DNA from: Verrucomicrobiia bacterium
Lineage (GTDB): Bacteria > Patescibacteriota > Saccharimonadia > Saccharimonadales > JAGQNK01
Reading direction: 5' to 3'
Length of the DNA: 64,000 bases
Assembly (NCBI GenBank): GCA_035489575.1
Contig: DATHJY010000004.1
Span: 91,483 to 155,482, forward strand
The translations under genes and the position numbers were made by a program. The notes beneath the pieces are model-generated. The model was not told the origin of the DNA. It searched no databases and saw only the letters and a program-made list of their open reading frames with translations. Positions 3,120-57,885 of this stretch are shown in pieces. Position 1 is the stretch's first letter; every line of letters begins with the position of its first letter.

Positions 3120-5447
3120 ATGGAAAATCCTAAGAATCAAATAGCAGAGCGTATAAAAGAGGCAAGCAATGTCTTGGTGACTGTTAGTGCCAACCCTTCG
3201 GTTGACCAACTGTCGGCGGCCATTGGCTTGACCCTACTACTGAACAAGCTGGACAAGCACGCCTCGGCTGTTTTTAGTGGGCAGGTGCCATCTACTCTTG
3301 AGTTCCTCAAGCCAGACGAAACACTCGAGAAAAATACCGATTCTTTGCGTGACTTTATTATTGCTCTGGACAAGTCCAAGGCTGACAAACTGCGCTACAA
3401 GGTCGAAGACACTATGGTCAAGATCTTTATTACTCCGTACCGTACATCTATCGGCCAGCAGGATCTTGAGTTTAGCCAGGGCGATTTCAACGTCGACGTG
3501 GTTATTGCACTAGGTGTCCATAGCAGGGAAGAGCTAGATCAAGCCATTACCGCTCATGGCCGTATCTTGCATGATGCAACAGTGGCAAGCATCAACACCA
3601 ACAGCGAGGGTGCCGATGTAGGCAGCATGAACTGGGCTGACGCCAAGGCTAGCAGTTTATGCGAGATGGTGGTGTCACTGGCCGAACTGGTCAAGGCCAA
3701 TTCGCTAGACGCCCAAATGGCGACCGCACTATTAACAGGTATCGTTGCCGAAACCGACAGATTCAGTAACCAAAAAACTACCTCGGTCACCATGAGTGCC
3801 AGTGCCAAACTGATGACAGCCGGTGCCAACCAGCAGCTGGTGTCGTCCAAACTGGAACAGCCCGAAGAGCTACCGCCAGCAGAACCGCTCGCCAAAAAAG
3901 AACCCAAGAAGGGCGCCAAAGATAAGGACCAGAAACCACCAGAAGATGCAGCGAGCGGTGATGGATCGTTACGGATCGAGCACGACGAAGAACCAGAAGC
4001 GCCCGAGCCCCCTGCAGAAGAACCGGCAAAGCCAATCGAACAGATAAAGATTGACGACCAAGGGCAGATGCTCCCCATGGAGCCACCTCAACTACCGCCA
4101 CCACCTCCACCCGAACCCCCTCATGAAGAACCCCCGGCGCCTCCACCACCCCCGCCTTTGCCCCCAATGAACGAGCCAACTCTGCCACCTCCAGTGCCAA
4201 AATCAGAGGCACATATCAAGGTGGATAGTCGTGACTTCCTAGAGCAGCCACCACTGACCCAGCGCCTTGAAGATGCCATGCAAACTACCATGCCCCAGGT
4301 ACCCGGCGAACTCGGCCTTGCGCCACCACCCGACGAAGACACGGGCTACGATCCAACAGGGGGGTCGCTCAACCTGCCGGCGGTGAATACGCCGCTACTC
4401 AAGCACAATTCTGGCGCGGCCCACACCAATGATGAACCCTTGCCTCCACCTCCACCTCTACCCCCGCGCCCTAAAGCACCAGAACCAAAACCTGAGCCAC
4501 CTCAACTACCGCCACCACCTCCACCCGAACCCCCTCATGAAGAACCCCCGGCGCCTCCACCACCCCCGCCACCGGCGCCCGAACCACTGCCTCCGCCACC
4601 ACCACCTCCTGTACCACCAAAACCGCCAGAGCCACAGCTGCCCCAGGCGGTCATTGACGTTATGGACGATCGCACCCTGAAGGAGCTTGAGCGGGTTGTA
4701 GATAGTCCACACCGCACCGCATCTGCCAAAGTAGGGGAGGGCAAGACCCTCAAGGCCTTAGAGCAGACTTTTAATAGCCCTCATCTCACCGCACCGCCAC
4801 CGGCGCCCGAACCGCTATTTCCTCCACTCCCAGCCCCGGGCAGTGCTGCACCCAAAAAAGACGACGACATGGCCCTAGACTACGAGGCTATAGACTCTGA
4901 GCCACCTGAACATGCCGACAAGCCAGATCCTAAAAAAGATGCAGCCGACAATCCCAGCCCAGCTGATGACCTGGGGGCTCCTGAAGTAACAGACGTACCA
5001 GTTCTGACCATACCTGGCAGTGCGCCAGTGGCCCCGGCCGATGACGTCACGCTCCCAGCCGCCGTTACTGATGGTGCGGACACCAATCAGCCACTAGCGG
5101 ACGCCCCGACAGGCGGCACCAACCTGGACGAACTGCCAACAGAAACCAATGCCCGTGACCAGGTAGCAGCAGCCCTGGCAGCCGCTAGCGGTACAGAACC
5201 CTTAGAGCCGCCAGCCGCCATGGGAGCTTCGCCGCTTTCGGAGATAGAACACCAAAAACCCGGCGCTCACATAGATATTGATAAAGACGGTACCGTCAGC
5301 TTCCCGCAGACGTTGGTACCAGAGTCAGACAGCTTGCCGCCAGACGATACAGCGGCTCCGGCCAGCGACGCCACCGCACCACCGACTATGCCACCACCCA
5401 TCATGCCACCGGTACCTTCTGCCGATAGCAGCTCCCCGGCTTCCTAG
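3120..5447 (+). CDS. degenerate DHH/NrnA-like N-terminal domain fused to ~500-aa proline-rich region
   Basis: ATG at 3120 (MENPKNQ...) is preferred over the upstream track start. N-terminal blocks align to the DHH layout (VLVTVSANPSVDQLSAAIGL, DVVIALGV, LLTGIVAETDRFSN), but the DxD/DHH acidic and His residues are replaced. The rest is PPPPxP low complexity. Confidence 0.7.
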   Translation: MENPKNQIAERIKEASNVLVTVSANPSVDQLSAAIGLTLLLNKLDKHASAVFSGQVPSTLEFLKPDETLEKNTDSLRDFIIALDKSKADKLRYKVEDTMVKIFITPYRTSIGQQDLEFSQGDFNVDVVIALGVHSREELDQAITAHGRILHDATVASINTNSEGADVGSMNWADAKASSLCEMVVSLAELVKANSLDAQMATALLTGIVAETDRFSNQKTTSVTMSASAKLMTAGANQQLVSSKLEQPEELPPAEPLAKKEPKKGAKDKDQKPPEDAASGDGSLRIEHDEEPEAPEPPAEEPAKPIEQIKIDDQGQMLPMEPPQLPPPPPPEPPHEEPPAPPPPPPLPPMNEPTLPPPVPKSEAHIKVDSRDFLEQPPLTQRLEDAMQTTMPQVPGELGLAPPPDEDTGYDPTGGSLNLPAVNTPLLKHNSGAAHTNDEPLPPPPPLPPRPKAPEPKPEPPQLPPPPPPEPPHEEPPAPPPPPPPAPEPLPPPPPPPVPPKPPEPQLPQAVIDVMDDRTLKELERVVDSPHRTASAKVGEGKTLKALEQTFNSPHLTAPPPAPEPLFPPLPAPGSAAPKKDDDMALDYEAIDSEPPEHADKPDPKKDAADNPSPADDLGAPEVTDVPVLTIPGSAPVAPADDVTLPAAVTDGADTNQPLADAPTGGTNLDELPTETNARDQVAAALAAASGTEPLEPPAAMGASPLSEIEHQKPGAHIDIDKDGTVSFPQTLVPESDSLPPDDTAAPASDATAPPTMPPPIMPPVPSADSSSPAS
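4080..4156 (+). repeat. 77-bp perfect intragenic direct repeat, copy 1
   Basis: gagccacctcaactaccgccaccacctccacccgaaccccctcatgaagaacccccggcgcctccaccacccccgcc is identical to 4494-4570. It encodes EPPQLPPPPPPEPPHEEPPAPPPPPP. Confidence 0.9.
4494..4570 (+). repeat. 77-bp perfect intragenic direct repeat, copy 2
   Basis: Identical to 4080-4156 and offset by 414 bp, so in frame. Confidence 0.9.
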
Positions 5448-10654: not shown

Positions 10655-10829
10655 AAAAGTGCATAAACCACCGTTCTTGAATCTCGAGAGCGGCAACTTG
10701 TGCACATTACAAGAGGGAACAGGTCGCTGGCAGAGCACCAGATATACGCGTGCATTATTTAAGCACAAGGCTCGTAGTATATTTGCACCCTGGCAGTGAC
10801 AACTCCCAGAAAGGTCTTCAGAAAGATAG

Positions 10830-13178: not shown

Positions 13179-13728
13179 TTTAGAACAGTTAAAAGCCAAA
13201 ATCTTGGCAGACAATGTGTGCCAAGATTTGGCTGCCCAGGCCACGCAGATTGTGTTTGGTGATGGCAGTGCAGACGCCCAGATCGTCTTTATTGGTGAGG
13301 CTCCAGGCAAGCACGAGGATCTACAGGGTCTGCCATTTGTCGGAGCAGCCGGGAAGTTTCTGGACGAGATGCTAGAGATGATCGGCATGCAACGAAAGGA
13401 CATTTACATTACCAATATCGTAAAGTACCGCCCGCCTAATAACCGGGACCCACTGCCCGAAGAAAAAGCCGTCTTCTTGCCGTACTTGCAAGCCCAGTTG
13501 GACATAATTCAGCCCAAGCTGGTGGCCACCCTTGGTCGCCATAGCATGAATTGTTTCCTACCGGACTTACAAATTAGCAAAGTCCATGGCCAGCCCAAAC
13601 GACACAAGGGCAGGGTCTATTTGCCGCTGTTTCACCCAGCAGCAGCCTTATATAACGGAGGTATGCGCCAGACACTTATAGATGACTTTGCGCGCATCCC
13701 ACTCATTTTAGACAAGATAAAAGCCTAA
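13162..13728 (+). CDS. uracil-DNA glycosylase superfamily protein, family 4-like
   Basis: GEAPGKHEDLQGLPFVGAAGKFL and YITNIVKYRPPNNRDP match family-4 UDG motifs. The cysteines that normally bind the 4Fe-4S cluster are mostly absent (VKYRPP instead of VKCRPP). Confidence 0.8.
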   Translation: MAKKDDLEQLKAKILADNVCQDLAAQATQIVFGDGSADAQIVFIGEAPGKHEDLQGLPFVGAAGKFLDEMLEMIGMQRKDIYITNIVKYRPPNNRDPLPEEKAVFLPYLQAQLDIIQPKLVATLGRHSMNCFLPDLQISKVHGQPKRHKGRVYLPLFHPAAALYNGGMRQTLIDDFARIPLILDKIKA

Positions 13729-13928
13729 GAACCTGTCCATGATCTCCAATTTCACCCCAAAACCGCCCATTCCGGCGCCAATCCGCCCTAGCCTATCAGC
13801 CGTAACTACGGTTACGCCAGATAAACTAGAACGAATTGTCATCCAAAGTGGATCAGTTTTGGAGGCAAAAGCGAAATCATGAACAGATTCTAAGAACCCT
13901 TTAACCTACGAAAGGAATAAAAACAAGT

Positions 13929-16043
13929 ATGAACAAACCAACTAATCAGAATAAACGCGGCCAAGGCGGAGCCCCTGCACGGGGTCGCACCAGACCTTTG
14001 GTGGGTGGAGCACCCGTACGCAGCGCCAGCCGCGGTGCTGCTATCCGCGCCCAGAAACGTACCCATGACGATGCCCAACGGGTTATCAGCCAATACCTAG
14101 AAGTGCCTGAAAAATCAGAAGGCAAGCGCCCCCAGCGGGCCAACTTTATCGACGACAATCCCCGCCTCAAGATCATCGGACTCGGTGGCATGGACGGTGG
14201 TGGGTCAAAGAACATGGTCCTGGTCGAATACATGAACGACGCCGTAATTATCGACGCCGGAAACGACCTAGGGGTCGACCTGCCAGGTATCAACTACGGC
14301 ATTTGCGATGTTAGCTATGTCGAATCTATCAAGCACAAGTTGCGCGGCTACATTATTACGCATGGCCACCTGGACCACATTGGTGGACTGCCGCACATTG
14401 TACCCAAGCTACCAGCACCTATTTATGGCTCACGCTTCTCCATTGGACGCGTAGAAGAAATCTTCCAGAACTTTGGGCTGCCTATGCCCGAAGGCTTCAA
14501 CCTAGAGACCGTGATCATGAACGAAAACACGCACGAGCGACTCAAGGTCGGACCGTTCTTTGTGGAACTCGTACGCGTTACGCACTCCATACCTGGCAGC
14601 ACCGTGGTGGTGCTCGATACTCCAGTAGGTCGCATCGTCAACACTGGTGACTTCCGTCTGGACCCTAATCCACTAGACCACGAGCGTACGGATATCGAAC
14701 GGCTCAAGCAACTGGGCGACGAAGGTGTGCTGGCGCTGCTCAGCGAGAGCACCACTACCGACCGTCTGGGTCGCACGCCATCAGAGAGCACCATCGAACA
14801 GAGTTATGTAGACATCATGGACAAAGCCCCAGGACGTATCTTTGTGGCTATCTTTAGTACTAACGTCAACCGCGTGCAGATGATCGTGAATGCTGCCGTA
14901 CACCACAACAAAAAGATCGCCCTAGATGGCCGCAGTATGATCAGTACCCTAGAAATGGCAGTGCGCAACGGCTTTATCAAGATTCCCAAAGGGACATTTG
15001 TGCCCATTTCTACCGTGCCCAATCTAAAAGACCAAGACGTCGTAGTAGTATGTACCGGTGGACAGGGCGAGCCCAGCAGTGCCTTGCAGCGCATGGCCAG
15101 TGGCGACCACAAGCACGTCAAACTAAAAGAGCAAGACACCGTTATCCTCAGTAGTACGCCTATCCCAGAGAGTGGCAACGACGCGCTTATTTCTGCCATG
15201 GTAGACAACCTGATGCGCAAGAATGTGCATGTTTTCCAGCACATCACCCACGAACTAGACGGCAACGGACCGCTGCACGTGTCTGGTCACGCTAGTATCG
15301 ACGAATATGCTGACATGATTAATATGACCAAGCCCAAATATTTCATTCCGATTTATGGGTCTTACTATAAAAAACAGCGCCACATAGAAATCGCAATAGA
15401 GAACAACATCCCGCGCAAAGATTGCGTAAATGCCGAGAACGGCGACATAGTAGAACTGTCACCAGACGCCATCCAGATTACCGGTAAAGTACCAGTTGGT
15501 ACTGTGTTGGTAGACCAGTCTGGTGCCATCGTTAGCAGCGTGGTTATCAAGGACCGCCTGATGTTGGCAGAAGAAGGCTTGGTAGCCATTGTTCTAACCA
15601 TAGACAAAAAGACCGGCAACCTGCTTACTAGCCCAGATATCATCAGCCGTGGTTTCATATATATGCGCGATAACGAAGAGCTCATGAACGCTTTCCGTAT
15701 AGAGCTGAAGCGGGCAGTCAGCCAGCGCTTTAAGCGAGTAGATCTGGACCGATTCAAGCTAGAGCTCAAAGAGCATGTCACCCATTTCTTGTTCGAGTAC
15801 ACCCAGCGCAGTCCAATTGTCATACCTGTTGTGAATGTCATCGCAGGCAAGGGCGGTAATGGCGGTAATGGTAATGGCACTGCTCCTGCTGCTGCAGGAA
15901 CAGCTCCTGGTAAAAAACAGGCTCCCGGTACTCCTCCTCCGCCTCCAGCCGAACCAACCCCAGACGAGATTGCCGCCGAACAACAGCGCCGCTTCGAAGA
16001 AATGCGTGCCCGCCTCCTTGGCCAAGACGCCCGCACAGACTAG
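13929..16043 (+). CDS. rnj: ribonuclease J with basic N-terminal and Gly/Pro-rich C-terminal extensions
   Basis: Metallo-beta-lactamase motif ITHGHLDHIGG, a beta-CASP layout and HVSGHAS. About 70 aa of RG-rich leader and about 70 aa of low-complexity tail. Confidence 0.9.
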   Translation: MNKPTNQNKRGQGGAPARGRTRPLVGGAPVRSASRGAAIRAQKRTHDDAQRVISQYLEVPEKSEGKRPQRANFIDDNPRLKIIGLGGMDGGGSKNMVLVEYMNDAVIIDAGNDLGVDLPGINYGICDVSYVESIKHKLRGYIITHGHLDHIGGLPHIVPKLPAPIYGSRFSIGRVEEIFQNFGLPMPEGFNLETVIMNENTHERLKVGPFFVELVRVTHSIPGSTVVVLDTPVGRIVNTGDFRLDPNPLDHERTDIERLKQLGDEGVLALLSESTTTDRLGRTPSESTIEQSYVDIMDKAPGRIFVAIFSTNVNRVQMIVNAAVHHNKKIALDGRSMISTLEMAVRNGFIKIPKGTFVPISTVPNLKDQDVVVVCTGGQGEPSSALQRMASGDHKHVKLKEQDTVILSSTPIPESGNDALISAMVDNLMRKNVHVFQHITHELDGNGPLHVSGHASIDEYADMINMTKPKYFIPIYGSYYKKQRHIEIAIENNIPRKDCVNAENGDIVELSPDAIQITGKVPVGTVLVDQSGAIVSSVVIKDRLMLAEEGLVAIVLTIDKKTGNLLTSPDIISRGFIYMRDNEELMNAFRIELKRAVSQRFKRVDLDRFKLELKEHVTHFLFEYTQRSPIVIPVVNVIAGKGGNGGNGNGTAPAAAGTAPGKKQAPGTPPPPPAEPTPDEIAAEQQRRFEEMRARLLGQDARTD

Positions 16044-16095: not shown

Positions 16096-16704
16096 ATGCA
16101 GACAAAGGGTGAACTCATAACCGGGCGACAGGCAAAGACTTACGATTATCGCGGTGCAGTATGGAATCGCATCAAGGCAAGACATCTGACCTTGGTCAAT
16201 CCTCAGCCTGGGCAGCGTGTCCTGGATGTGGGGTGCGGTACGGGCAGGACTCTGCAACTGCTGAGTCAAAAGTGTGACAAGGGCGTACAGCTCTACGGGC
16301 TTGAGCCGTCACCCGATATGCTTGAGCGAGCACGGGCAGGGCTCGGGAAACGGGCCCAGATTCGGCAGGGGTTTGCTCAAGAGTTGCCGTATCCCACTGC
16401 TCATTTTGATTTCGTTATAAGTACTCAGGTGCTACACCATATCCCTCTGGTAGGAAAAAAAGAAATGCTATCAGAAATGCACCGCATATTAAAACCGGGC
16501 GGCACGCTGGTATTGAGCGATTGGGGTAAGCCTACGACTACCTTGGGTAAAATCATAGGGCTCTTATGGCGTAACCATGCCTACGTACAAGCCAACAGAA
16601 ATATCCTCACTACAGGCTTTCTCCAGACTATAGACCTCAATACGCACGAGATTGTGCAGTTCGGAGTAGTACACCACCTAGTGGGCAAAAAGCAGAGAGA
16701 GTAG
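16096..16704 (+). CDS. class I SAM-dependent methyltransferase
   Basis: VLDVGCGTGRT is the SAM-binding motif I. I chose the in-frame ATG at 16096 (MQTKGEL) because the track ORF start at 15835 overlaps rnj. Confidence 0.75.
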   Translation: MQTKGELITGRQAKTYDYRGAVWNRIKARHLTLVNPQPGQRVLDVGCGTGRTLQLLSQKCDKGVQLYGLEPSPDMLERARAGLGKRAQIRQGFAQELPYPTAHFDFVISTQVLHHIPLVGKKEMLSEMHRILKPGGTLVLSDWGKPTTTLGKIIGLLWRNHAYVQANRNILTTGFLQTIDLNTHEIVQFGVVHHLVGKKQRE

Positions 16705-16720
16705 CTGACATGCATGTATA

Positions 16721-16839
16721 ACCTGAATCCCGAAACTCAATTTAACAGAGGTAGGTGAAAATGAAAGTCTACTCACCCCAACAGAGACGGCAACTTCACC
16801 CAAATCCTTATAACAGGGGTGTAGTTTCGGGATTCAGGT
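16721..16839. mobile_element. MITE-like element (119 bp), perfect 17-bp TIRs, 6-bp TSD TGTATA
   Basis: acctgaatcccgaaact (16721-16737) is the exact reverse complement of agtttcgggattcaggt (16823-16839). tgtata flanks both ends (16715-16720 and 16840-16845). Confidence 0.7.
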
Positions 16840-16866
16840 TGTATAAACTTGATAAAAGTACAGTTT

Positions 16867-16902: not shown

Positions 16903-17889
16903 ATGGAAAATCTACTTCCCAATACAGCTCACGAAGTACCTCTTGTGCCCTCTGGGGCTGAGGTTCGGGAACCCTTGGATCGGCTAAGTGATGAAGAGTT
17001 TTTGCAAGCCTCACAGGAGTTCGGCAACACATACGCTGCACTGGTACGAGGAGAGGCGGTCGACGACTTTCCAGCTTCGGCAGAGGTGCAGGCAACCCTT
17101 GATGCTGCCGGTCAAAAACTAGAGGGTCTGGATGAGTCTCAGCGCGCGAAAGTAGTTATTGGTCAGTATCGAAGCGTGCTCAGAGAAGCCTACGAAGCTG
17201 CAGGACACGAGCCGCCTATCGATAGTGGCGAGCCGGATGAAGCAGCGCTTGCATCCGTAACTAGAGTAGAGCAGGGTCCTTACGGTACACAGATTGTATA
17301 CACTAATGGCAAGCAGAACGAGGCGTTGTTTGGTAGTGATAGCCTCGCGTTTGCTGCCTCAGAGGCCATGCTCCAGCACTATAACACCCCTATAGTGGTG
17401 GTGTACGAAGGATATGGTGACAACGAGAAGCAAGAGGTCATGACACATGAAACCAGCCATGCCGTATGGGGAGTGCTGCGTGCCAGTGGCGTGATACCTT
17501 CACCCCAGGGTGAGGACGATCGTGCGGGTGCCGGCCGTTCGGCATTCGAGCTTGCCCGAGACGAAGCGGCCGCCCTGATGGTGGCTGGTCAGAGGAAGAT
17601 AGTTCATTCCAATGTCGTGACCCGCATGGAACAGGAAGGGTATAGCGCCGAACAGGTTGAAAGGTATCGTGCTCTGGGCGAGGGTTTTAATGCAATGGCC
17701 GTCCAGGATAAGCCCATAGAACTTTCTAGTGCGTTGCTCGGTATAGTATCTGCCCGGACCTTTGATGAGCTAGAGGTAAACATGACCAGGTTGGCTCGAC
17801 TAACCCAGGCCCTTCCGGGAGTAGAGAAACCGGCAAATGACAGTGCAGAAGTCGAAACGCCCGATGAAGCACCTATGTGGACCCTCTAG
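16903..17889 (+). CDS. HExxH-motif protein, putative zinc metallopeptidase-like (328 aa), paralog group member 1
   Basis: MTHETSHAVWG contains HExxH, followed by FELARDEAAAL. No signal peptide. The gene is flanked by MITE-like elements. Confidence 0.6.
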   Translation: MENLLPNTAHEVPLVPSGAEVREPLDRLSDEEFLQASQEFGNTYAALVRGEAVDDFPASAEVQATLDAAGQKLEGLDESQRAKVVIGQYRSVLREAYEAAGHEPPIDSGEPDEAALASVTRVEQGPYGTQIVYTNGKQNEALFGSDSLAFAASEAMLQHYNTPIVVVYEGYGDNEKQEVMTHETSHAVWGVLRASGVIPSPQGEDDRAGAGRSAFELARDEAAALMVAGQRKIVHSNVVTRMEQEGYSAEQVERYRALGEGFNAMAVQDKPIELSSALLGIVSARTFDELEVNMTRLARLTQALPGVEKPANDSAEVETPDEAPMWTL

Positions 17890-17899
17890 GTAGAAGAGT

Positions 17900-18023
17900 A
17901 CCTGAATCACGAATTAGAACCCCTGTTAAATTACAGATAGGATGTATCCGAATCAGGCCCCCTTATCTGTCGGAAAAGCACAAGAGAATCAGACTAACAG
18001 ATAGGCTAATTCGTGATTGGGGT
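17900..18023. mobile_element. second MITE-like element (124 bp), 18-bp TIRs with 2 mismatches
   Basis: acctgaatcacgaattag (17900-17917) versus the reverse complement of ctaattcgtgattggggt (18006-18023) gives 16/18 matches. No clear TSD. Confidence 0.5.
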
Positions 18024-18032
18024 GCGTAAATA

Positions 18033-18061
18033 TTGAATTATCTTTGTAAAAATGGTATAGT
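18033..18061 (+). promoter_or_regulatory. sigma70-like promoter (TTGAAT-17-TATAGT)
   Basis: An AT-rich promoter immediately upstream of the high-GC lipoprotein gene. Confidence 0.4.
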
Positions 18062-18135
18062 TTGCACGACTCTATCAGAGTTTTGTTTGCCCAAGAAGTG
18101 CAAGTTCGTACCCGAAATTACAGAGAGGAGCGGCA

Positions 18136-18636
18136 GTGTCCGCTTTTCAATCTCCTGGCCGCCGAGTGCTGCTGGGTGTCCTGGTTCTCCTGGCCCTCGC
18201 GGTCTCCGCCTGTGGTGGCGACGCTGGTGCCAGTGGCAGCCGACCCAATGCCAACCGCAACGTCCAGACCTTCGACGACGTGCGGGATGACTACACCTTC
18301 ACCGCCGAGGACTACAGCGACGAGATCCTGGACTACGCCGAGGATTTTCCCGAGCTCGACTTCCTGAACAACCGGGACCTCCTGGACAACGTGGCTTGGC
18401 TGTGCGCCGAGGTGGACGTCACGGGTGTTCAGACGGTGACCGCGGTCGACCGACTGGCTGCCAAGATCGGCCACCGGTGGCCGGAGGACCTGGATCCGCT
18501 GGCTGAAGCTGCCGGTTCGTACGTCTGTCCCGGCGTGATTAGCGACTACTACGTCGTCGACCCCTACGGCTACCGCGACTACATCGTCGAGGAAGATCCT
18601 TTCTTCGGCGATGATGGCTACTACGACGACTTCTAG
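18136..18636 (+). CDS. putative secreted lipoprotein, Asp/Tyr-rich (166 aa), high-GC gene
   Basis: GTG start preceded by agaggag. The signal peptide ends in lipobox LAVSAC. GC3-rich codon usage is unlike the neighbouring genes. Confidence 0.6.
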   Translation: MSAFQSPGRRVLLGVLVLLALAVSACGGDAGASGSRPNANRNVQTFDDVRDDYTFTAEDYSDEILDYAEDFPELDFLNNRDLLDNVAWLCAEVDVTGVQTVTAVDRLAAKIGHRWPEDLDPLAEAAGSYVCPGVISDYYVVDPYGYRDYIVEEDPFFGDDGYYDDF

Positions 18637-18939
18637 AGCCGTCGGCGATAGAAACATCTGATAGGGAACCGCGCGTGGCGTTGGTGGCAATTGACTGGAG
18701 GACATCCTTCATCAAGACCCATCAATGCCCCGCGCGACCCACCCACGATTATTATTTTTGAAGATTCGCTGCCAATACAGCTCATCAGTACAGCTTGAGA
18801 TTACTATCTCTACTCTGCAGTCTTCGGGTGGATGGTCTCTTGTGGTTCAGGGGGCGCTAGTGGCGTCCAACGAATCATAAAGACCACCCACCCGGTGATT
18901 TGATATCTGGTCACCACTCCAGAGGCGCTGTACTGGCGG

Positions 18940-19344
18940 CTAACTGATGGGGCCTGACATCGGGGTCTGACAGTTTTGGCAGAAGTACCGGCCGGGCGCA
19001 TTGATCTTTCCGCATACTCGGCAGGTTGGGGAGGAGGTTTTCTTTTCTTCCAGAGAGGATGAGGTGGGCAGGGTGCCGAGTGGTTCTGGGGACGGCATGG
19101 GTGGGTAGATGACGTTCGTGCCTTCGGGATCTTTTTCTCGTGAAGCAGCATTCACAAGGGCTACCATGGCAGCAACAAAGCAGGCGACCATGATCAGCAC
19201 CAGGGGGATGGGGAGTTGACCGGCGTCCAGCCGTAATCCAATCCAGGCCACCAGTGTCACAAGCAGCACACCAACAAGACAACGTCCCGCCACGGCAGGT
19301 GTCATGTCTGTACCTCTTTCTAAGATGTGAGCTAACCAAGCCAA
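18940..19344 (-). CDS. membrane protein with C-terminal zinc-ribbon (CxxC...CxxC)
   Basis: Two hydrophobic helices followed by CRVCGKINAPGRYFCQNC. The start is uncertain; MTPAVAG at 19305 is also possible. It lies in the high-GC segment. Confidence 0.5.
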   Translation of the reverse strand: MAWLAHILERGTDMTPAVAGRCLVGVLLVTLVAWIGLRLDAGQLPIPLVLIMVACFVAAMVALVNAASREKDPEGTNVIYPPMPSPEPLGTLPTSSSLEEKKTSSPTCRVCGKINAPGRYFCQNCQTPMSGPIS

Positions 19345-19466
19345 CCTTGGTCAGTACAGCTACTGATGCGTTTTTCAGCGCAGGAGTACTATGATTATAC
19401 AATGTTACTGTCATAGCAGCGAGGTGGGTGCCAAGACTGCCGGCCAGCTGCGTTAAAAACATAACC

Positions 19467-20376
19467 CCGTGAATCACGAAACCCCCAACACATAAAGCAC
19501 CCGTTTTGCTACTCTTGAAGTGCTAGCTAAAAGAGGAAACAAACATGAGTGCTTTACAAAAACATCATATCGTCGATCTGTTTGTTTGGGTAGACGAATG
19601 TCTACCCAAACACGAGCCTTATCCGTTCGGTGGTCGTCCTTCGGCTCTCCGGGATAGTGAGCTGCTCACTATCCTCATCTGGGACGGCCTCAACGAACCG
19701 CACAAAACACTCAAGGCCATTCATTCCTGGATACGGCGGGATTATGGAGATTACTTTCCTCACCTGCCCAAGTACCAGAACTTTGTGGCTCACTGCCACC
19801 GGCTACTGCCAGCTATGATCTGGCTGTTGCAGTCCTTGCTGCGCTACGATGCGGCCCTGCGCTTTGCCGACAGCACCATGCTGGAAGTATCCAAGAACCA
19901 CCGAGCCGACCACCACAAGGTTGCCCGAAGTGTGGCCGCCTGGGGCAAGAACTGGCAGGGCTGGCACTACGGCTTCAAGCTGCACGCCAGCATTGACCAG
20001 AACAACAACCTAACTGGTATCTGTTTCACCCCGGCCAATGGCTATGACGCTCAACACATGGAGCAACTGGCGAAAGGCGCGACCAAAGTCCTCGTTGGCG
20101 ATAGCCACTACGGAGCCAGCCCGATGAGAAGGCGGCTCTGGAAGAAGCACGGCATTATTGTTATTGCACCGCCGCACTACAAACAGCGCAAGAAGCTCAT
20201 GAGCGGAATGCAATTCCTACTCCTGAATATGCGGTCCAAGATTGAAGCGACCTTCGACTACCTCAAGGAGCACATGCACCTGGTTAGCTCGTTCCCGAGG
20301 AGCGTGAACGGCTACGCCGTTCACTACCTACGGACGCTGCTCGGTTACCAGATGGGGAGGGTTTCGTGATTCACGG
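19467..20376 (+). mobile_element. insertion sequence (910 bp), IS982-like / IS5-superfamily DDE type
   Basis: Perfect 18-bp terminal inverted repeats: ccgtgaatcacgaaaccc (19467-19484) and gggtttcgtgattcacgg (20359-20376). The 6-bp direct repeat ataacc flanks both ends (19461-19466 and 20377-20382). Confidence 0.85.
19545..20369 (+). CDS. DDE transposase (274 aa)
   Basis: The blocks ADSTMLEV, WHYGFKLHASID, VLVGDSHYG and RSKIEATFDYLK resemble IS982/IS5-type DDE transposases. The ORF ends inside the right TIR. Confidence 0.85.
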   Translation: MSALQKHHIVDLFVWVDECLPKHEPYPFGGRPSALRDSELLTILIWDGLNEPHKTLKAIHSWIRRDYGDYFPHLPKYQNFVAHCHRLLPAMIWLLQSLLRYDAALRFADSTMLEVSKNHRADHHKVARSVAAWGKNWQGWHYGFKLHASIDQNNNLTGICFTPANGYDAQHMEQLAKGATKVLVGDSHYGASPMRRRLWKKHGIIVIAPPHYKQRKKLMSGMQFLLLNMRSKIEATFDYLKEHMHLVSSFPRSVNGYAVHYLRTLLGYQMGRVS

Positions 20377-20385
20377 ATAACCAGA

Positions 20386-20414
20386 TTGACAAACGTTGTA
20401 ATTTTTGTTATAAT
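20386..20414 (+). promoter_or_regulatory. consensus sigma70 promoter TTGACA-17-TATAAT upstream of ftsK
   Basis: ttgaca at 20386-20391, a 17-nt spacer, then tataat at 20409-20414. The 9-bp inverted repeat gttgtaatt/aattacaac (20395-20403 and 20412-20420) overlaps the -10. Confidence 0.55.
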
Positions 20415-20507: not shown

Positions 20508-22718
20508 ATGGCTAAAAAAAGACAGACCAGAAAGAAAAAAATCGAACCAGAGGTAGCAGAGAAGTCTCCCTTTTTGCCGTTGGCCGGGGCTATCTTGTTA
20601 TTCATCGCTGCTTTCTTCTTGCTGCTGGGTGGCTTTGGTAGTGGTGGTCCACTGCCTATTGGCATGTTCCACGGAGCCTACTGGGCACTGGGGTGGGGAG
20701 CCTACCTGACACCACTCGCACTTATATTCTTTGGACTTTGGAAGTTCACCAGCGAAGGCCACCGTATTCCAGTGCAGAAGCTTATCGGCATGGTGACGCT
20801 ACTGATCTTTCTGGCCGCTTGGTTGCACGTAGCCTTTGTTACTAAGCATGCCGCCGAGGCATTTGTTGGTGGCCACGGCGGGGCCGCCGGACTTGGGCTG
20901 GGTGGTCTGGTACTGAACGCACTAGACAAGGTGCCAGCCTCTATCCTGTTCTTGGTGTTGGCAACTCTTATGTTTTTCCTGACCTTTGGCATCTCGCCCA
21001 AGGTGCTGATGAACTTGCTCAACATCTTTAAGCGTCCAGAATCTGATGACACTGACCTGGCTGAGCTGAAGGCTCGGGCCGCCGACAATGGCTTTAAACT
21101 GAACGAAGGGGTGCCGGTAGAACACCACAACGCTCGCGACCGAGCGCGCATGAGTAGCCTTAAGAATACTGCCGCCAAACTGTCCCCGCCCGAAGACCAC
21201 GCTGCTCTGACGGCCGCCAGCGATCCAAACTGGCAGTTTCCACCTATGAGCTTGCTAAATCAAAAGCAGGACAAGGCCGACGCCGGCGACGTAGAAGGCA
21301 ACGCCGAGGCTATCAAAGAAACCTTTGCCAACTTCAATATAGATGTCGAGATGGAAGGTGCCAATATTGGCCCGCGGGTAACCCAGTTCACTCTCAAGCC
21401 GCCTAATGGCGTCAAGCTGACCAAGATGACCGCCCTAGAGAACAACCTAGCTCTGGACTTGGCAGCACATTCTATCCGCATGGAAGCACCTATCCCCGGC
21501 AAACGTGCTGTGGGTGTAGAAGTGCCCAATGTTAAATCTGCCACTGTACGAATCAGCAGCCTGTTGCAATCCAACGAATGGAGCTCGGTGGATAGCCCCT
21601 TGGGCTTTGTGATCGGTAAGGATATCGCCGGTCAGCCTGTAGTGGGCAATTTGGGTAAGATGCCCCACTTATTGGTTGCTGGTCAGACGGGTTCCGGTAA
21701 GTCGGTCATGATCAACGCCATTCTGACGAGCTTGCTGTACCGCAACAGTCCCTCGGACCTCAAACTGATTCTGGTGGACCCCAAACAGGTAGAACTGAAG
21801 CCTTATGATGACATCCCACACTTGCTGACACCGGTCATAACTGAACCAGAAAAGTGCATCAGCGCCCTCAAGTGGACGGTGGCCGAGATGGAACGCCGCT
21901 ACAAAGCCCTCAGCGATGTACACCGTCGCAATATCGTAGAATACAACGCACTCAAAAAAGAAGAGGGCATGCCTTACATTGTGGTGGTTATAGACGAATT
22001 AGCCGACCTTATGATGATGGCCGCCCGTGATGTCGAGGCTCTAGTAGTGCGTATTGCCCAGAAGGCTCGGGCCGTGGGCATCCACCTGGTGCTGGCCACG
22101 CAGCGTCCGTCTGTCGATGTTATCACCGGACTTATCAAGGCTAATGTACCAGCTCGTATCGCCTTTACCACAGCCAGCCAGGTAGATTCACGCACTATCA
22201 TAGACCAAATGGGTGCCGAGAAGCTGCTGGGCATGGGTGACATGCTACTGCTGACTGCCGACATGCCCAAACCCAAGCGCGTTCAGGGTGCTCTGATAGA
22301 CGACAACGAAACTCTGAAAGTTACTGACTTTATTCGCCAGCAGCGTCCACCACAGTACGACGAAGAGATCATCAGCCAACCCGTCCAGCTGAACGGCAAA
22401 GGTGGTATCGTGGCTGATCCGAGTGCTGGTGACGACACCAACGATCCCCTGTATAAAGACGCCGTCCAGGCTGTTATAGACGGTCGCAAAGCTAGTACCA
22501 GTCTGTTGCAGCGTCGCCTGCGCATAGGCTACGGCAAGGCTGCACGATTTATCGAAACCATGGAAGAGCAGGGTATTATCAGCTCCGCAGATGGCAATCG
22601 TCCCCGCGAAGTGCTGGTGACTTCACTAGACGAAGTCTTTGGCGGTGGTGCAGCGGCACCCATTCAGGCACTTGCTACAGATGCCGTCCTAGACGAAAAC
22701 TTCCCCGAAGAGGCGTAA
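20508..22718 (+). CDS. ftsK: DNA translocase FtsK/SpoIIIE
   Basis: N-terminal TM helices, Walker A GQTGSGKS, VVVIDELADLMM, and a C-terminal gamma winged-helix (LLQRRLRIGYGKAARFIE). Confidence 0.95.
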   Translation: MAKKRQTRKKKIEPEVAEKSPFLPLAGAILLFIAAFFLLLGGFGSGGPLPIGMFHGAYWALGWGAYLTPLALIFFGLWKFTSEGHRIPVQKLIGMVTLLIFLAAWLHVAFVTKHAAEAFVGGHGGAAGLGLGGLVLNALDKVPASILFLVLATLMFFLTFGISPKVLMNLLNIFKRPESDDTDLAELKARAADNGFKLNEGVPVEHHNARDRARMSSLKNTAAKLSPPEDHAALTAASDPNWQFPPMSLLNQKQDKADAGDVEGNAEAIKETFANFNIDVEMEGANIGPRVTQFTLKPPNGVKLTKMTALENNLALDLAAHSIRMEAPIPGKRAVGVEVPNVKSATVRISSLLQSNEWSSVDSPLGFVIGKDIAGQPVVGNLGKMPHLLVAGQTGSGKSVMINAILTSLLYRNSPSDLKLILVDPKQVELKPYDDIPHLLTPVITEPEKCISALKWTVAEMERRYKALSDVHRRNIVEYNALKKEEGMPYIVVVIDELADLMMMAARDVEALVVRIAQKARAVGIHLVLATQRPSVDVITGLIKANVPARIAFTTASQVDSRTIIDQMGAEKLLGMGDMLLLTADMPKPKRVQGALIDDNETLKVTDFIRQQRPPQYDEEIISQPVQLNGKGGIVADPSAGDDTNDPLYKDAVQAVIDGRKASTSLLQRRLRIGYGKAARFIETMEEQGIISSADGNRPREVLVTSLDEVFGGGAAAPIQALATDAVLDENFPEEA

Positions 22719-31508: not shown

Positions 31509-31896
31509 TTCCTATAGGACCTAGGTGAGTTACATGGAATCTCTCGTGCTTCAGGCCGAATCCCAGTGCTCGGTCCAGGCTAATATGAGCGTTCCAGGCT
31601 AGCATGGCGAGGGTAAGTTCTGTAAATCCACCGAACAATCCAATGATCAGTAGGACACGGGGAACGATATAGCTATGTCCCAGGTTATACGCCAGCCCGC
31701 CGATGTGATTGTTGACTAGGTAGCCCAGCATAAACAGGTCAATGCTCACAAATATAGCCGCAAAAAGCCACCAGTTGCCACCCAGCGTGCGAAAGGCATA
31801 TGTGGTGATAATGAGCACCAAAAAACATTCCGCGCGGAGCACCAGACTACTTCTCTTTGTCGCCCAAGGTTTTTTGGCTAGTGCTTGGTCCATCAT
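31492..31896 (-). CDS. DUF4260-like small membrane protein
   Basis: Hydrophobic, with the motifs LGHSYIVP and HISLDRALGFGLK. Start taken at the tandem Met (MMDQ) rather than the longer track ORF. Confidence 0.5.
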   Translation of the reverse strand: MMDQALAKKPWATKRSSLVLRAECFLVLIITTYAFRTLGGNWWLFAAIFVSIDLFMLGYLVNNHIGGLAYNLGHSYIVPRVLLIIGLFGGFTELTLAMLAWNAHISLDRALGFGLKHERFHVTHLGPIGIKKSS

Positions 31897-31986
31897 TACT
31901 ATCTTACACGTCATAGAGCAGATCTTGGGGTATATTGTTGGTTGCACTATATTGCAATTAATACAATATTATGTTATATTAATACA

Positions 31987-33048
31987 GTGCAAGATGAAAC
32001 AGAAACAACTGCAAAAACACCGCAGCATGAAATTTTTGCTTCTCCCGATAGAGACCTGACACTATATCTTACGGTTAGCGAAGAGCTAGGTTCGGTGGCC
32101 CTGAAGAATGAAGCCGCAGAGCACGCGCTAGACATTTGGCGGGCCAACACTAACGAAATCTTAGAATTTCCTTCTGTAGAAGAAGGTTTGGATATGGACG
32201 GCATTCGTGCTGCCCGTGAGCGCATGGGTGTTACCGAGAGACCACTGCGATTTCTTTCGCCAGAAGATTACCAGAGCGTTCTTACTCTCCTTGAGGATTC
32301 GGAGGATCATAGTAGTGGACGATATCTTTATAATCAAGACGTACTTCTTGTGAAGCGCGACCCATCGCTAGAGGCGCTTAACGGCCCTGGGTATACCGAG
32401 AGTCTGGCTGTTCATGAAATGGCCCATAGTGGGATGTCCATTAGTTTGACTGCGAATGTCGACATTAAGCGCGGCATCGTTGACGGCATCGAGCAGCAAT
32501 ACGTCACTGGTGGTATCGAGCAGCATCCGACTCGTGCCGGCTTTATCGTTAAGGGCCCTGAGACACAAGAGGGGAAAGAGAGAAAAATACATGGGAGTGC
32601 CCTGGAAGAAGGGTATGCAGAGTTAGAGCGAGGCATCTTTAACATAAGCATAGGCAGGCCCAACGGTTTCGGGGTTGCCGGACAAGAAGATGGTTATGAC
32701 CCTTACGCCAAATACTCAGTGCTATCCAAAACGGAAAAAGGGGAAGTGCAGTCTAGTGACACACCTGGCGCCTCCGTCGCGGTGATATTAGAGGTATTGA
32801 TAGAAAAAGATCCAGAAATACTGGATGCGCTTAGGCGTCGTAACTTAGGCGGTCGTGATTCGGTTGACGGCCATAGAGAGTTTATACAGAGGGTCAATCA
32901 TCTTGTGCCTGGACTATATAAAAAGCTGAGACAGCTTAACCATCATGATAAATATTTCAGCACACGAGCAAGGGAATTGTATGATGACACGTTGGTTGAT
33001 CTGGACCTCGACCTCGATCCAAAGTACAAAAATAGACCTATACGTTAA
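31987..33048 (+). CDS. HExxH-motif protein, gluzincin-like (about 353 aa), paralog group member 2
   Basis: LAVHEMAHSG is followed by SALEEGYAELE, resembling the MA-clan third-ligand helix. The start is uncertain (GTG 31987 or TTG 31942). The 3' end overlaps ychF by 11 nt, convergently. Confidence 0.55.
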   Translation: MQDETETTAKTPQHEIFASPDRDLTLYLTVSEELGSVALKNEAAEHALDIWRANTNEILEFPSVEEGLDMDGIRAARERMGVTERPLRFLSPEDYQSVLTLLEDSEDHSSGRYLYNQDVLLVKRDPSLEALNGPGYTESLAVHEMAHSGMSISLTANVDIKRGIVDGIEQQYVTGGIEQHPTRAGFIVKGPETQEGKERKIHGSALEEGYAELERGIFNISIGRPNGFGVAGQEDGYDPYAKYSVLSKTEKGEVQSSDTPGASVAVILEVLIEKDPEILDALRRRNLGGRDSVDGHREFIQRVNHLVPGLYKKLRQLNHHDKYFSTRARELYDDTLVDLDLDLDPKYKNRPIR

Positions 33049-34117
33049 ACCGAAACTCCACAACATCATCAGGTTGCATGATATAGGTTTTGCCCTCGGT
33101 ACGGACCTTGCCCGCGGCCTTGGCGGCAGCTTCCGAGCCAGCAGCTAGTAGGTCGTGATAGTCGACAATCTGGGCGGCGATAAACCCACGCTCGAAATCG
33201 CCGTGAATAACACCGGCGGCTTGCGGGGCGGTAGCGCCTTTGCGTACGGTCCAGGCCCGTACCTCTTGCTCGCCTGCGGTCAGGTAGCTTTGCAGACCCA
33301 GTGTGTCATAGGCGGTATGGGTCAGCTGTACCAGACCGGACTGGTGTACGCCGTAACTCTCTAGCAGTTCGCTGCGGTCTGTGTCGTCCAGGCCCTTTAG
33401 CTCAGATTCTAATTTGGCACATACAAAGACTGCCTGCGCGGGCTTTACCATATCAGACAGCTGCTGCTTCTTGGATTCATCTGCCAGCGCTTCTTCGTCG
33501 ACGTTGAACAAGTAAATAATCGGCTTGGCTGTCAGAAGCTGCAGGTCTGCAATGTGCTCCATGTCCAGGCCGTCTAGGGCAGACAGGGGCGTCCCTTCAT
33601 TAAGCGTGTCGTGAACCATCTGCAGCGTTTCGGCCAGGGGCCGTAGCTTGGGGTTGGCCCGGGCTTCTTTGTCTACGCGGGGCAGGCGCTTCTGGACGGT
33701 TTGCAGGTCTGCTAGCACCAGTTCGGTGTTGATGACGTCTATGTCTTTCTGGGGGTCATGCTGGTCGTCCACATGTTGCACGTTGGGGTCGCTAAAGGCC
33801 CGCACCACATGACAAATAGCATTGCAGCTCCGGATATTGGCCAGGAACTGGTTGCCCAGGCCCTCGCCCTGAGAGGCGCCAGCCACCAGACCGGCTATGT
33901 CAACAAAGGTAACCGTTGCGGGCACTATTTTTTTGCTGTTATACAGGTCGGCTAATTTCTGCAGCCTGTTGTCTGGCAAGGGGACAATGCCAGTGTTGGG
34001 TTCTATGGTGGCAAAAGGATAATTGGCTGCCAAAATGTCGTTGTCAGTCAGGGCGTTGAACAGCGTAGACTTGCCAACATTTGGCAGACCCACAATTCCA
34101 ATTTGAAGTGAACTCAT
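33038..34117 (-). CDS. ychF: ribosome-binding ATPase YchF
   Basis: IGIVGLPNVGKSTLFNALT P-loop, a TGS-like C-terminus and a length of 359 aa. Confidence 0.95.
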   Translation of the reverse strand: MSSLQIGIVGLPNVGKSTLFNALTDNDILAANYPFATIEPNTGIVPLPDNRLQKLADLYNSKKIVPATVTFVDIAGLVAGASQGEGLGNQFLANIRSCNAICHVVRAFSDPNVQHVDDQHDPQKDIDVINTELVLADLQTVQKRLPRVDKEARANPKLRPLAETLQMVHDTLNEGTPLSALDGLDMEHIADLQLLTAKPIIYLFNVDEEALADESKKQQLSDMVKPAQAVFVCAKLESELKGLDDTDRSELLESYGVHQSGLVQLTHTAYDTLGLQSYLTAGEQEVRAWTVRKGATAPQAAGVIHGDFERGFIAAQIVDYHDLLAAGSEAAAKAAGKVRTEGKTYIMQPDDVVEFRFNV

Positions 34118-34125
34118 ATGTAGCT

Positions 34126-34176
34126 ATTCTAACAGAGGTAGCGCTAGTTGACAAATAAGCATAAGTGTGATAATAT
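34126..34176. promoter_or_regulatory. back-to-back divergent promoters with overlapping -35 boxes
   Basis: Plus strand: ttgaca (34148-34153), 17 nt, taatat (34171-34176). Minus strand: ttgtca (complement of 34149-34154), 17 nt, TGtTAGAAT (complement of 34126-34134). The -10 ends 8 nt before the ychF ATG. Confidence 0.5.
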
Positions 34177-34200
34177 GAAATTGTTAATCCAAAACAAAAA

Positions 34201-35067
34201 ATGGCAGAACCTGTACCGCATTCATTAACTCCTCCCGAAGCCCTAACTCTTAGGGTAGATAGTCTTGATACTCAACAGGGTATTGGGGGTGGTGACTTGG
34301 ATAATGAAGCTAACCGCACAGCAGAATCTATCCTCGGTGCACATATGCCAGCGTATGACCACTATGTAGGTGCTGCTCGTGATTTTGTAGCAGATAAGCT
34401 AGGGATGACAGACGTGTCTTCCGTGGATCGTACGGCAGTGTTACCTGCCGAAACTGCCGAAGCCTGGGGTGTTGGAAGCAGTGGCGGGCACTATTTACCA
34501 GAACTTGAAGTGGCATATGTTTTTGAACAATCAAGCGGAAGGCCCAAAACTGACAAACTGATTTTAGCATCTAGTCTTGTGCACGAACTTGCTCACTCGG
34601 CTACGGTTACGCCAGAAAATGCTAGAAGCGAAAATCCTTTTTATCACGAAGCCCTTGCGGGAATGGCTGAATACTTTGCCCTGCAAAATCTGGCAGAAGC
34701 GGGAGAGTTTGATCCAGCACCTGATACAACCGTTACCAGGACAGTCGGCGGGGAAGACATTACAATAGTTGTTCCAGGAAGTTTCCGTAGAGTTGATGCT
34801 TCGGAAGTGAAGGATGGACAGGCAGATAGTACACAAGCACTCATCGCAGCAATGGTTGTGGGTATGGGATTAAAAATAAACGGACAGTCAGCCAAAGAAC
34901 TTCTAGGTTTAGCCAGAAGGGGTGATAACGCAGCGTACGATGCAATGCGGAATGCTATGGCAAGTATTGACCCAACACTCGTAGAAGACATATTACAGAC
35001 ATCAGGTTCAACGGATGAAATTATCAAGGTTGCTCATAAAGCCCAAAAAATTGTTGAAATGATTTAG
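34201..35067 (+). CDS. HExxH-motif protein, gluzincin-like (288 aa), paralog group member 3
   Basis: LVHELAHSA is followed by FYHEALAGMAEYFA (EGxAxY-like helix). No signal peptide. Confidence 0.6.
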   Translation: MAEPVPHSLTPPEALTLRVDSLDTQQGIGGGDLDNEANRTAESILGAHMPAYDHYVGAARDFVADKLGMTDVSSVDRTAVLPAETAEAWGVGSSGGHYLPELEVAYVFEQSSGRPKTDKLILASSLVHELAHSATVTPENARSENPFYHEALAGMAEYFALQNLAEAGEFDPAPDTTVTRTVGGEDITIVVPGSFRRVDASEVKDGQADSTQALIAAMVVGMGLKINGQSAKELLGLARRGDNAAYDAMRNAMASIDPTLVEDILQTSGSTDEIIKVAHKAQKIVEMI

Positions 35068-35103
35068 AATAGCCGCGCTTGTTTTGTAGTTTGGGCATAC
35101 GGA

Positions 35104-35190: not shown

Positions 35191-35283
35191 AAGAACAAAA
35201 AAGACATTCCACTGCAAAATCCCATTCAGCGGGGTGAAACCTCTATACCTATACCCTAAACTTCACTTCAGTTATTGATATGT

Positions 35284-57850: not shown

Positions 57851-57854
57851 ATTT

Positions 57855-57881: not shown

Positions 57882-57885
57882 AAAT

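Follow-up and report, generated by a model that had tools for sequence, protein, structure and literature searches.

That chromosomes carry integration hot spots, or islets, in the gaps that separate conserved core genes is a general concept of bacterial comparative genomics. Among lipoproteins, Lpp of Escherichia coli is known as a codon-biased and very abundant small lipoprotein, and the Vlp and Vsp proteins of Mycoplasma exemplify families of variable surface lipoproteins in bacteria that depend on a host, lack a wall or are reduced. Here we describe a locus of a soil Saccharibacterium that can be set beside all of these. It lies in a stretch of 64,000 nucleotides of contig DATHJY010000004.1 (assembly GCA_035489575.1; hereafter the window), between rnj, which encodes RNase J, and ftsK, and comprises a small lipoprotein gene and a convergent gene for a zinc-ribbon (Zn-ribbon) membrane protein. 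An earlier reading of the window from sequence alone had flagged the interval that holds both genes, 18024-19466, as a 1.4-kb high-GC insert recently acquired from a high-GC donor, possibly an actinobacterial host. We consider it likely, instead, that these are two resident, unrelated genes of a lineage-specific islet, and that the GC content at third codon positions (GC3) of the lipoprotein gene has been maintained for a long time rather than recently imported. The finding is a lineage-specific lipoprotein gene in a variable islet with one curious feature, a long-maintained codon composition that is restricted to its coding sequence (CDS). The features on which the argument turns are the following, with alignments to two related loci, L001 and L085.

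18033-18061, + strand: lipoprotein promoter, TTGAAT-17-TATAGT with extended -10 TG; TTGCAT-17-TATAGT in L001, TTGTTA-17-TATAAT in L085
18062-18135, + strand: AT-rich 5' untranslated region (UTR) with a conserved CTCTATCAGAG motif and the ribosome-binding site (RBS), from the alignment of window, L001 and L085
18123-18130, + strand: lipoprotein RBS GAGAGGAG, ahead of the GTG start
18136-18636, + strand: lipoprotein CDS, 166 amino acids (aa), GTG start; signal peptide and lipobox VSAC26; predicted five-helix core at about residues 38-135 and disordered Asp/Tyr-rich tail at 136-166
18843-18915: repeat segment between the convergent genes, about 73 bp, with terminator-like hairpins; single copy in the window
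18940-19305, - strand: Zn-ribbon membrane protein, 121 aa; two N-terminal hydrophobic segments, Pro-rich linker and C-terminal CxxC-x10-CxxC

The compositional anomaly is limited to the 501-nt lipoprotein CDS, and the 1.4 kb is not one compositional unit. Against a window GC of 52.0%, the flagged interval has 55.9%, only the 96th percentile (4.3% of 1443-nt windows reach or exceed it), and its tetranucleotide and dinucleotide signatures are unremarkable, with 13% and 26% of windows, respectively, at least as deviant. The description as a high-GC insert fails because the Zn-ribbon CDS (GC3 0.59-0.62; 48th tetranucleotide percentile) and the 303-nt spacer between the convergent genes (GC 53%) are of ordinary composition. 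The lipoprotein CDS, in contrast, reaches a GC of 62.9% (top 0.35% of 501-nt windows), a GC3 of 0.79 (z about +3.5 versus window genes of at least 150 aa, whose mean is 0.563 with a standard deviation of 0.065) and a tetranucleotide distance in the top 0.08% of windows. Its third positions are A.04, C.54, G.25 and T.17, versus about A.19, C.36, G.23 and T.22 in rnj and ftsK. The high GC ends at the start codon, and the promoter and UTR upstream are AT-rich.

Several details of the sequence-only reading bear recounting. Its three hand counts of 60-nt lines are exact (43/60, 37/60 and 26/60), a miniature inverted-repeat transposable element (MITE; 17900-18023) and an insertion sequence (IS; 19467-20376) do flank the interval, and the AT-rich TTGAAT-17-TATAGT promoter is of the native type. 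The sliding-window GC, GC3 and tetranucleotide statistics that it had proposed as a check bear out the lipoprotein CDS as an outlier and show the whole interval and the Zn-ribbon CDS to be normal; the GC3-biased codons it had ascribed to the insert are accordingly a property of the lipoprotein gene. A long antisense open reading frame (ORF) is also present (195 aa, 18118-18705), and we attribute it to the near absence of A (4%) at sense third positions, which makes stops rare. As a real gene we rejected it, because the first codon position of the antisense frame is the third of the sense frame; the sense frame is favoured by its conserved lipobox and cysteines and by a high-confidence fold.

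The setting of the two genes is variable across Saccharibacteria and stable within one narrow clade. RNase J of the window (13929-16043) matches 80 GTDB species representatives at no more than 81% identity, nearly all labelled Candidatus Saccharibacteria or Saccharimonadales, and ftsK follows rnj on the same strand in 64 of these 80 loci, across a gap of 130-4874 bp (median 780; below 300 bp in nine). Elsewhere these gaps hold unrelated lineage-specific ORFs, among them transposase-like, small acidic and large membrane proteins (L003-L082). Because both gap size and gene content vary among loci, the rnj-ftsK junction is a gene-content hot spot. Of the islet genes of the window, none occurs in the 160 other rnj loci of Saccharibacteria drawn from GTDB and JGI, which supports a lineage-specific islet relative to that set.

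Homologs were sought with a word-indexed search of 5.8 billion protein clusters, which returned two for each window gene, and with a HMMER profile search of 1.84 billion representatives, which added six credible, small homologs of the lipoprotein. All homologs with readable context are in the same rnj-ftsK gap of close relatives, arranged as follows.

L002 (JGI Ga0193753_10001111): 99.975% identical to the window over 12.2 kb
L001 (Logan): RNase J, methyltransferase, lipoprotein (75% aa identity), S1 protease, PF04228 Zn-peptidase, Zn-ribbon protein (65% aa identity), FtsK
JGI 3300078620 contig: UDG, RNase J, methyltransferase, three tandem lipoprotein paralogs
L085: RNase J, lipoprotein, FtsK, the gap being otherwise empty
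L084: RNase J, a 248-aa lipoprotein, then a member of the lipoprotein family

The lipoprotein family occupies the same gap in at least five lineages, at 28-75% protein identity. No family homolog was found in any high-GC taxon, viral contig or plasmid searched, and two metagenome scans, one with the family alignment and one with RNase J, returned no further clade member. Two giant TPR proteins, P0007 and P0011, were discarded as spurious homologs with multi-stretch matches to helical repeats; P0007 lies on a 66%-GC contig beside an integrase and Thoeris-like genes. A phage or plasmid origin was rejected on the lack of any match to viral contigs or plasmids. The homology search thus yields clade-internal homologs for both proteins and no match to a donor lineage, contrary to what the proposed import would lead one to expect, and the comparison of sister genomes goes the same way, both genes being at the same site in L001 and the lipoprotein family also in L085, L084 and JGI 3300078620. 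The sequence-only reading had itself named two findings that would speak against it, homologs within the lineage of the flanking genes and ordinary composition; the former applies to both genes, the latter to the Zn-ribbon gene only.

How old this arrangement is can be gauged from the flanking genes. Between the window and L001 these show 86-96% protein identity, 83-87% nucleotide identity and a synonymous divergence (dS) of 0.5-1.1. Taken with its promoter and some 280 bp of downstream sequence, the lipoprotein segment has 83% nucleotide identity to L001, close to that of the flanks, and has therefore co-diverged with them. The promoter and the 5'UTR with its RBS can be aligned among the window, L001 and L085. 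Divergence is larger still from the other relatives: FtsK has a dS of 1.4 between the window and L085, and RNase J is saturated between the window and L084, at a dS of about 3.5. Across lineages that keep the lipoprotein, its promoter and its 5'UTR in this position, the flanking genes are 0.7-1.4 apart in dS or saturated. GC3 of the family could be compared in the four lineages with DNA:

window: lipoprotein 0.79, flanks 0.58-0.61
L001: lipoprotein 0.87, flanks 0.57-0.61
L085: lipoprotein 0.93, flanks 0.62-0.64
L084: family member 0.84, flank 0.72

Identity at four-fold sites, normalised for third-position composition, is about 0.29 for the lipoprotein and about 0.28 for FtsK between the window and L085, the two being equally diverged. 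In a rough two-state relaxation model that sets the equilibrium GC3 at about 0.6 and lets each lineage undergo about 0.7 synonymous changes, a GC3 of about 0.73 or less would be expected by now, even from a starting value of 1.0. Because the family keeps values of 0.79-0.93 despite large or saturated flank divergence, we regard the bias as long maintained and not as the scar of a fresh transfer.

The lipoprotein is a small acidic protein of a previously undescribed family confined to one narrow Saccharibacteria clade. Its signal peptide has R9 and R10, with Kyte-Doolittle windows above 1.6 across residues 7-33, and an (A/T/G)-A-C lipobox stands at the aligned position in seven of eight family members; the eighth, P0012, has an uncleaved transmembrane (TM) anchor in its place. 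The lipobox and the Asp/Tyr-rich character noted earlier are both borne out, the latter by 24 D, 11 Y and a pI of 4.05 in the mature form. The lipobox, a WLC motif, a YVC motif and the invariant cysteines C90 and C131 are common features of the family. AlphaFold2, run on eight sequences, predicts a five-helix core at residues 38-137 (pLDDT 93.6, pTM 0.85) and a disordered tail. Foldseek of the core against the PDB gave at best an E value of about 1 and a TM score of 0.41, and Pfam, NCBIfam, PADLOC, PDB sequences and PDB folds gave no significant match. Nor did the 5'UTR match any regulatory RNA in Rfam; its fold is insignificant in the window and L001, and L085 alone gives z = -2.7. The ratio of nonsynonymous to synonymous divergence (dN/dS) of the lipoprotein is 0.44 versus L001 and about 1 versus L085 and L084. 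Judging from its residues, the protein would be lipid-anchored through Cys26 on the outer face of the membrane and probably carries a C90-C131 disulfide, and its predicted role is probably that of a fast-evolving surface protein in contact with the host, phage or the envelope.

The Zn-ribbon gene encodes an ordinary-composition protein with two TM segments and a predicted cytoplasmic zinc ribbon, shared solely with the closest sister lineage. The two hydrophobic segments and the ribbon described earlier are both there, the latter as C95xxC98-x10-C109xxC112. We placed its start at the ATG at 19305, which gives 121 aa, rather than at the TTG at 19344, because that ATG is common to the L001 homolog. 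The protein can be likened to Pfam zinc-ribbon domains on membrane anchors, with the same CxxC-x10-CxxC motif and sub-threshold matches: scores of 15-17 bits for zinc_ribbon_2 (PF13240), DZR (PF12773) and PF18912 lie below the gathering thresholds of 25-27. It also resembles the C-terminal tail of the L001 protease, consisting of a TM segment, a Pro-rich linker and a Zn-ribbon (pairwise BLASTP E 3e-6), and the proteases of L001 and L083 as well as several actinobacterial S1 proteases end in that same tail. In the stand-alone 121-aa form it has just two homologs among the 5.8 billion clusters. One homolog, P0003 (VK694_02135), is 99% identical and carries the NCBI label 'Verrucomicrobiae bacterium'; its 156-kb contig is probably mis-binned or mislabelled, since the locus context is that of Saccharibacteria.

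The 4.46-kb rnj-ftsK gap of the window holds a methyltransferase gene, MITE1, a 328-aa orphan gene, MITE2, the lipoprotein gene, the Zn-ribbon gene and the IS, in that order. Apart from the two genes already described, its features and those at its right border are:

16096-16704, + strand: S-adenosylmethionine (SAM)-dependent methyltransferase, Pfam Methyltransf_11/25, the first islet gene
16721-16839: MITE1, 119 bp, terminal inverted repeats ACCTGAATCCCGAAAC / GTTTCGGGATTCAGGT, 16 nt perfect
16903-17889, + strand: orphan protein, 328 aa, with a HETSH (HExxH) motif, between MITE1 and MITE2
17900-18023: MITE2 (putative; the MITE of the sequence-only reading), 124 bp, with a degenerate right end; inverted repeat of 29 nt, 76% complementary; duplication not intact
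19467-20376, + strand: IS of the IS982 family, 910 bp, perfect 18-bp terminal inverted repeats CCGTGAATCACGAAACCC
19545-20369, + strand: IS transposase, 274 aa, NF033520 at 140 bits versus a cut-off of 130
20386-20414, + strand: ftsK promoter, consensus TTGACA-17-TATAAT, directly right of the IS, at the end of the islet
20508-22718: ftsK

The mobile elements are neighbours with histories of their own. The IS belongs to IS982 by its transposase score above cut-off, its inverted repeats and its 6-bp target duplication (ATAACC at 19461-19466 and 20377-20382); in L001 the target is still intact, with one ACAACC immediately before the conserved ftsK promoter. One other relative of the transposase was seen, at 68% identity in L063. 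MITE1 is likewise bordered by a 6-bp duplication, TGTATA at 16715-16720 and 16840-16845, and its termini and the IS ends have TGAATC[A/C]CGAAAC in common. MITE2 aligns to MITE1 and to the IS ends, and two MITE copies were seen. The whole stretch from the methyltransferase stop to the lipoprotein promoter, with MITE1, the 328-aa gene and MITE2, is missing from L001. What has been inserted here in a lineage-specific manner is the MITE-bracketed 328-aa gene, not the flagged interval; its protein has no match in Pfam, NCBIfam or PADLOC. Because the IS and MITE1 each show a 6-bp duplication of their own and an empty site in L001, they are later arrivals and not the vehicle of the lipoprotein gene. 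A composite transposon, in which MITE and IS had moved the 1.4 kb together, was rejected on the same duplications, on outer ends that share none and on the clean L001 sites. No integrase, tRNA or attachment site was found at the window islet, and we saw no island boundary signatures belonging to the segment.

Some further observations concern this stretch. The contig of L002 stops precisely where the IS does on its right side (window 20376), and since a contig end at a repeated element is a typical assembly break, this suggests further IS copies in the genome. Over its 12.2 kb L002 differs from the window only at 11663 and 18867-18868. The islet methyltransferase follows RNase J in L001, where its copy has 66% aa identity, and in JGI 3300078620, and is absent from L084 and L085. 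It matches the methyltransferase part of PADLOC 'mad2' (E 1e-23) along with dozens of generic SAM-methyltransferase models, and the 'mad2' match probably reflects no more than a shared fold.

The sister lineages carry a module that the window lacks. An S1/Trypsin_2 protease and a PF04228 Zn-metallopeptidase, with GC3 of 0.78-0.83, occupy 10809-13531 of L001, where the lipoprotein gene is contiguous with them, and 308-3035 of L083, where the module has 80% nucleotide identity and a different context, beside two small membrane-protein genes with a GC3 of 0.80. Outside the group, relatives of the L001 protease are 32-37% identical; the named ones are all Actinobacteria (Spongisporangium, Geodermatophilus twice and Pseudonocardia), and an unnamed one lies on a 72.4%-GC contig with a GC3 of 0.92. 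In L001, direct copies of the repeat segment (10705-10777 and 13677-13749) enclose the module in 2.97 kb. The window copy is a hybrid, its left half like the left and its right half like the right copy of L001. Deletion of the module by recombination between the repeats in the window lineage would be the most likely explanation, because a hybrid single copy is its expected product; insertion of the module in L001 is conceivable as the alternative.

What could maintain such a codon composition? Selection on synonymous sites, for example through very high expression or a requirement at the level of the mRNA, would be the most likely cause of the lipoprotein bias. On the axis that separates ribosomal, EF-P and enolase genes from the rest, the gene comes 4th of 60, and the highly expressed set shifts weakly in the same direction (GAC, AAC, CAC, CTG, CCC, CGC). 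Other observations tell against our interpretation. The presumed highly expressed genes of the window (S6, S15, EF-P, enolase, SSB and Ndk) have a GC3 of only 0.54-0.63 and 19.5% A-ending codons, which makes ordinary translational selection alone insufficient for values of 0.8-0.9, and the TAC, TTC, GTC and GAG preferences of the lipoprotein are not common to them; as the full cause, ordinary translational selection is thus supported only in part. In L001 and L083 the protease, the Zn-peptidase and the two small membrane proteins all have a GC3 of about 0.8 and look like members of one compositional class whose shared origin may be foreign. The lipoprotein dS versus L001, 0.35, is below that of the flanks (0.5-1.1) and could mean a younger coalescence. 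The GC3 comparison covers four lineages, and that of the 3-kb indel two, the window and L001.

When 1138 ORFs from about 80 loci of Saccharibacteria were scanned with a threshold of at least 0.17 above the locus median GC3, only the L001 protease (0.82) and Zn-peptidase (0.78) emerged as further outliers. Persistence of such a GC3-rich class requires either selection or recurrent input, and there may be a small class of GC3-rich accessory genes with an old high-GC origin. A more far-reaching idea, which we hold tentatively and with some doubt, is that a few accessory envelope genes of this clade (the lipoprotein family, and the S1 protease and Zn-metallopeptidase of the sisters) are actively held off equilibrium, at a GC3 of 0.8-0.93 versus about 0.6 and nearly devoid of A-ending codons, even as their proteins change rapidly. 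If so, a tiny, tRNA-poor epibiont genome would have a codon regime specific to a gene class and outlasting the saturation of neutral sites. Instead of horizontal transfer, massive or conditional expression where the epibiont meets its host could underlie this regime, or else a regulatory or mRNA-stability mechanism that the genes have in common.

These considerations must be weighed against explanations that rely on foreign DNA. That the 1.4-kb block with both genes came recently from a high-GC donor, perhaps the actinobacterial host, and bears the scar of a composition not yet ameliorated is, in our judgement, very improbable. The idea draws on the lipoprotein CDS as a strong outlier in GC, GC3 and tetranucleotides, on its codon pattern (C > G >> T, A about 0), which is like that of high-GC organisms, and on mobile elements on both sides. 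Synteny contradicts the recency, however: both genes share their site with L001 across a flank dS of 0.5-1.1, and three more lineages, at a greater distance, have a member of the lipoprotein family in that gap. The extent of the proposed unit is contradicted by the normal composition of the Zn-ribbon gene and the spacer. An AT-rich promoter and UTR are conserved up to the start codon where the high GC stops, the IS and MITE1 bring their own target duplications and have empty sites in L001, and neither the clusters nor the representatives searched contain a homolog from outside the clade for either window gene, which contradicts the supposed high-GC donor. An artefact of assembly or binning, with a high-GC fragment chimerically joined to a Saccharibacteria contig, has a practically negligible chance of being right. 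The sequence is indeed metagenome-derived and one homolog bears a Verrucomicrobiae label, but the same adjacency recurs in five independent assemblies from JGI and Logan samples, L002 is nearly identical over 12.2 kb, and composition switches exactly at the CDS boundaries while the native promoter is conserved.

Two other routes for foreign DNA were weighed. The lipoprotein, S1 protease and Zn-metallopeptidase genes might have reached the ancestor of the clade long ago as a block from a high-GC, actinobacterium-like donor, their GC3 decaying passively since and the window lineage losing two of them. We find this unlikely, even though the three genes are contiguous and the sole GC3 outliers in L001, the named protease relatives are actinobacterial and another is on a 72.4%-GC contig, the spread of GC3 among lineages (0.79-0.93) fits drift from a high start, and the single hybrid repeat copy fits a deletion. 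Flank dS is large or saturated (1.4 versus L085, 3.5 versus L084), and a GC3 of about 0.73 or less would be expected by now, yet L085 has 0.93; the protease is only 32-37% identical to its counterparts in Actinobacteria, so that no donor is identified; the lipoprotein has no actinobacterial homolog; and the non-coding DNA on either side lacks the donor-type composition. Alternatively, homologous recombination through the conserved flanks might reload the junction repeatedly with lipoprotein alleles and refresh its GC3, the source being a high-GC reservoir that sampling has missed, such as a mobile element, the host or other Saccharibacteria. The junction is highly variable, its islet genes are 65-75% identical where the flanks reach 95-96%, the protease and peptidase module has a different context in L083, the lipoprotein dS versus L001 is below that of the flanks, and a type IV pilus operon lies within the window. 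Type IV pili are often linked to competence. Still, we think this distinctly unlikely, as no reservoir sequence is present in any collection searched, the AT-rich promoter and 5'UTR are conserved among window, L001 and L085, the nucleotide identity of the lipoprotein segment equals that of the flanks, and tandem paralogs, differentially retained, explain the low identity between lineages. Two resident genes, one of them with a maintained codon bias, is thus the reading we prefer.

Other parts of the window deviate in composition as well. Its highest-GC stretch (3951-5447, about 61%) is within a 793-aa protein with Pro/Glu/Ala-rich repeats (PPPPPPEPP…) and owes its GC to these amino-acid repeats, that is, to first and second codon positions (GC1, GC2), the GC3 there being 0.53. 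The lowest-GC stretch (31885-35956, 41.7-48% GC) has genes with GC3 of 0.33-0.47, orphan ORFs that deviate most in codon usage in the window (z -6.5 and -5.6), and at 35280-35956 a small gene pair that on inspection by eye looks like a toxin-antitoxin pair; if foreign DNA is sought, this stretch is a stronger candidate than the flagged interval. At 50968-52764 on the - strand, a 598-aa GDSL/SGNH-lipase-like protein with a lipoprotein-type N-terminus (…FATVSC) has a GC3 of 0.69, about tied with the IS transposase (0.695) for second in the window behind the lipoprotein, and may be in the same GC3-rich envelope class. Finally, an ORF at 57711-58019 has a translation holding …REGFEPPTP…, the usual sign of translation through a tRNA gene, and a tRNA gene is probably located there.

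Our findings bear on how compositional outliers in the genomes of epibionts are interpreted. In TM7x, no strong sign of genes transferred from the Actinomyces host was seen (PMC7427843), and the evidence here against recent gene flow from an actinobacterial host agrees with that remark. The locus is also a counter-example to reading a GC3 spike beside mobile elements as recent horizontal transfer, the spike being old, restricted to the CDS and apparently maintained. It further identifies the rnj-ftsK junction as a gene-content hot spot of Saccharibacteria and adds a new orphan lipoprotein family with a confident predicted fold, sometimes in tandem, which is a plausible candidate surface factor for interactions of the epibiont with its host or with phage. 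The practical weight of these points is modest pending expression or function.

Each of the systems with which we began resembles this locus in part. As in integration hot spots and islets, the core genes here (rnj and ftsK) enclose 0.1-5 kb of genes that are unrelated to one another and specific to a lineage, and IS and MITE accumulate; unlike recent arrivals in such islets, the lipoprotein gene is stably inherited within its clade, and the IS982-family element and the related MITEs are its neighbours, not its cause. With Lpp of E. coli the lipoprotein may be compared by analogy, as a small lipoprotein with its own strong promoter and RBS and a codon bias far above the genome average. We found no similarity between the two in sequence or fold, and Lpp is conserved, whereas the window lipoprotein evolves fast and has a bias beyond that of the ribosomal, EF-P and enolase genes of the window. 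The Vlp and Vsp proteins of Mycoplasma share with it restriction to a lineage, tandem paralogs, a high dN/dS, a low-complexity tail and a presumed host dependence. In contrast to those families, the window locus shows no phase-variation machinery, repeat tracts or invertible promoter, and the core of its lipoprotein is a well-folded helical domain.

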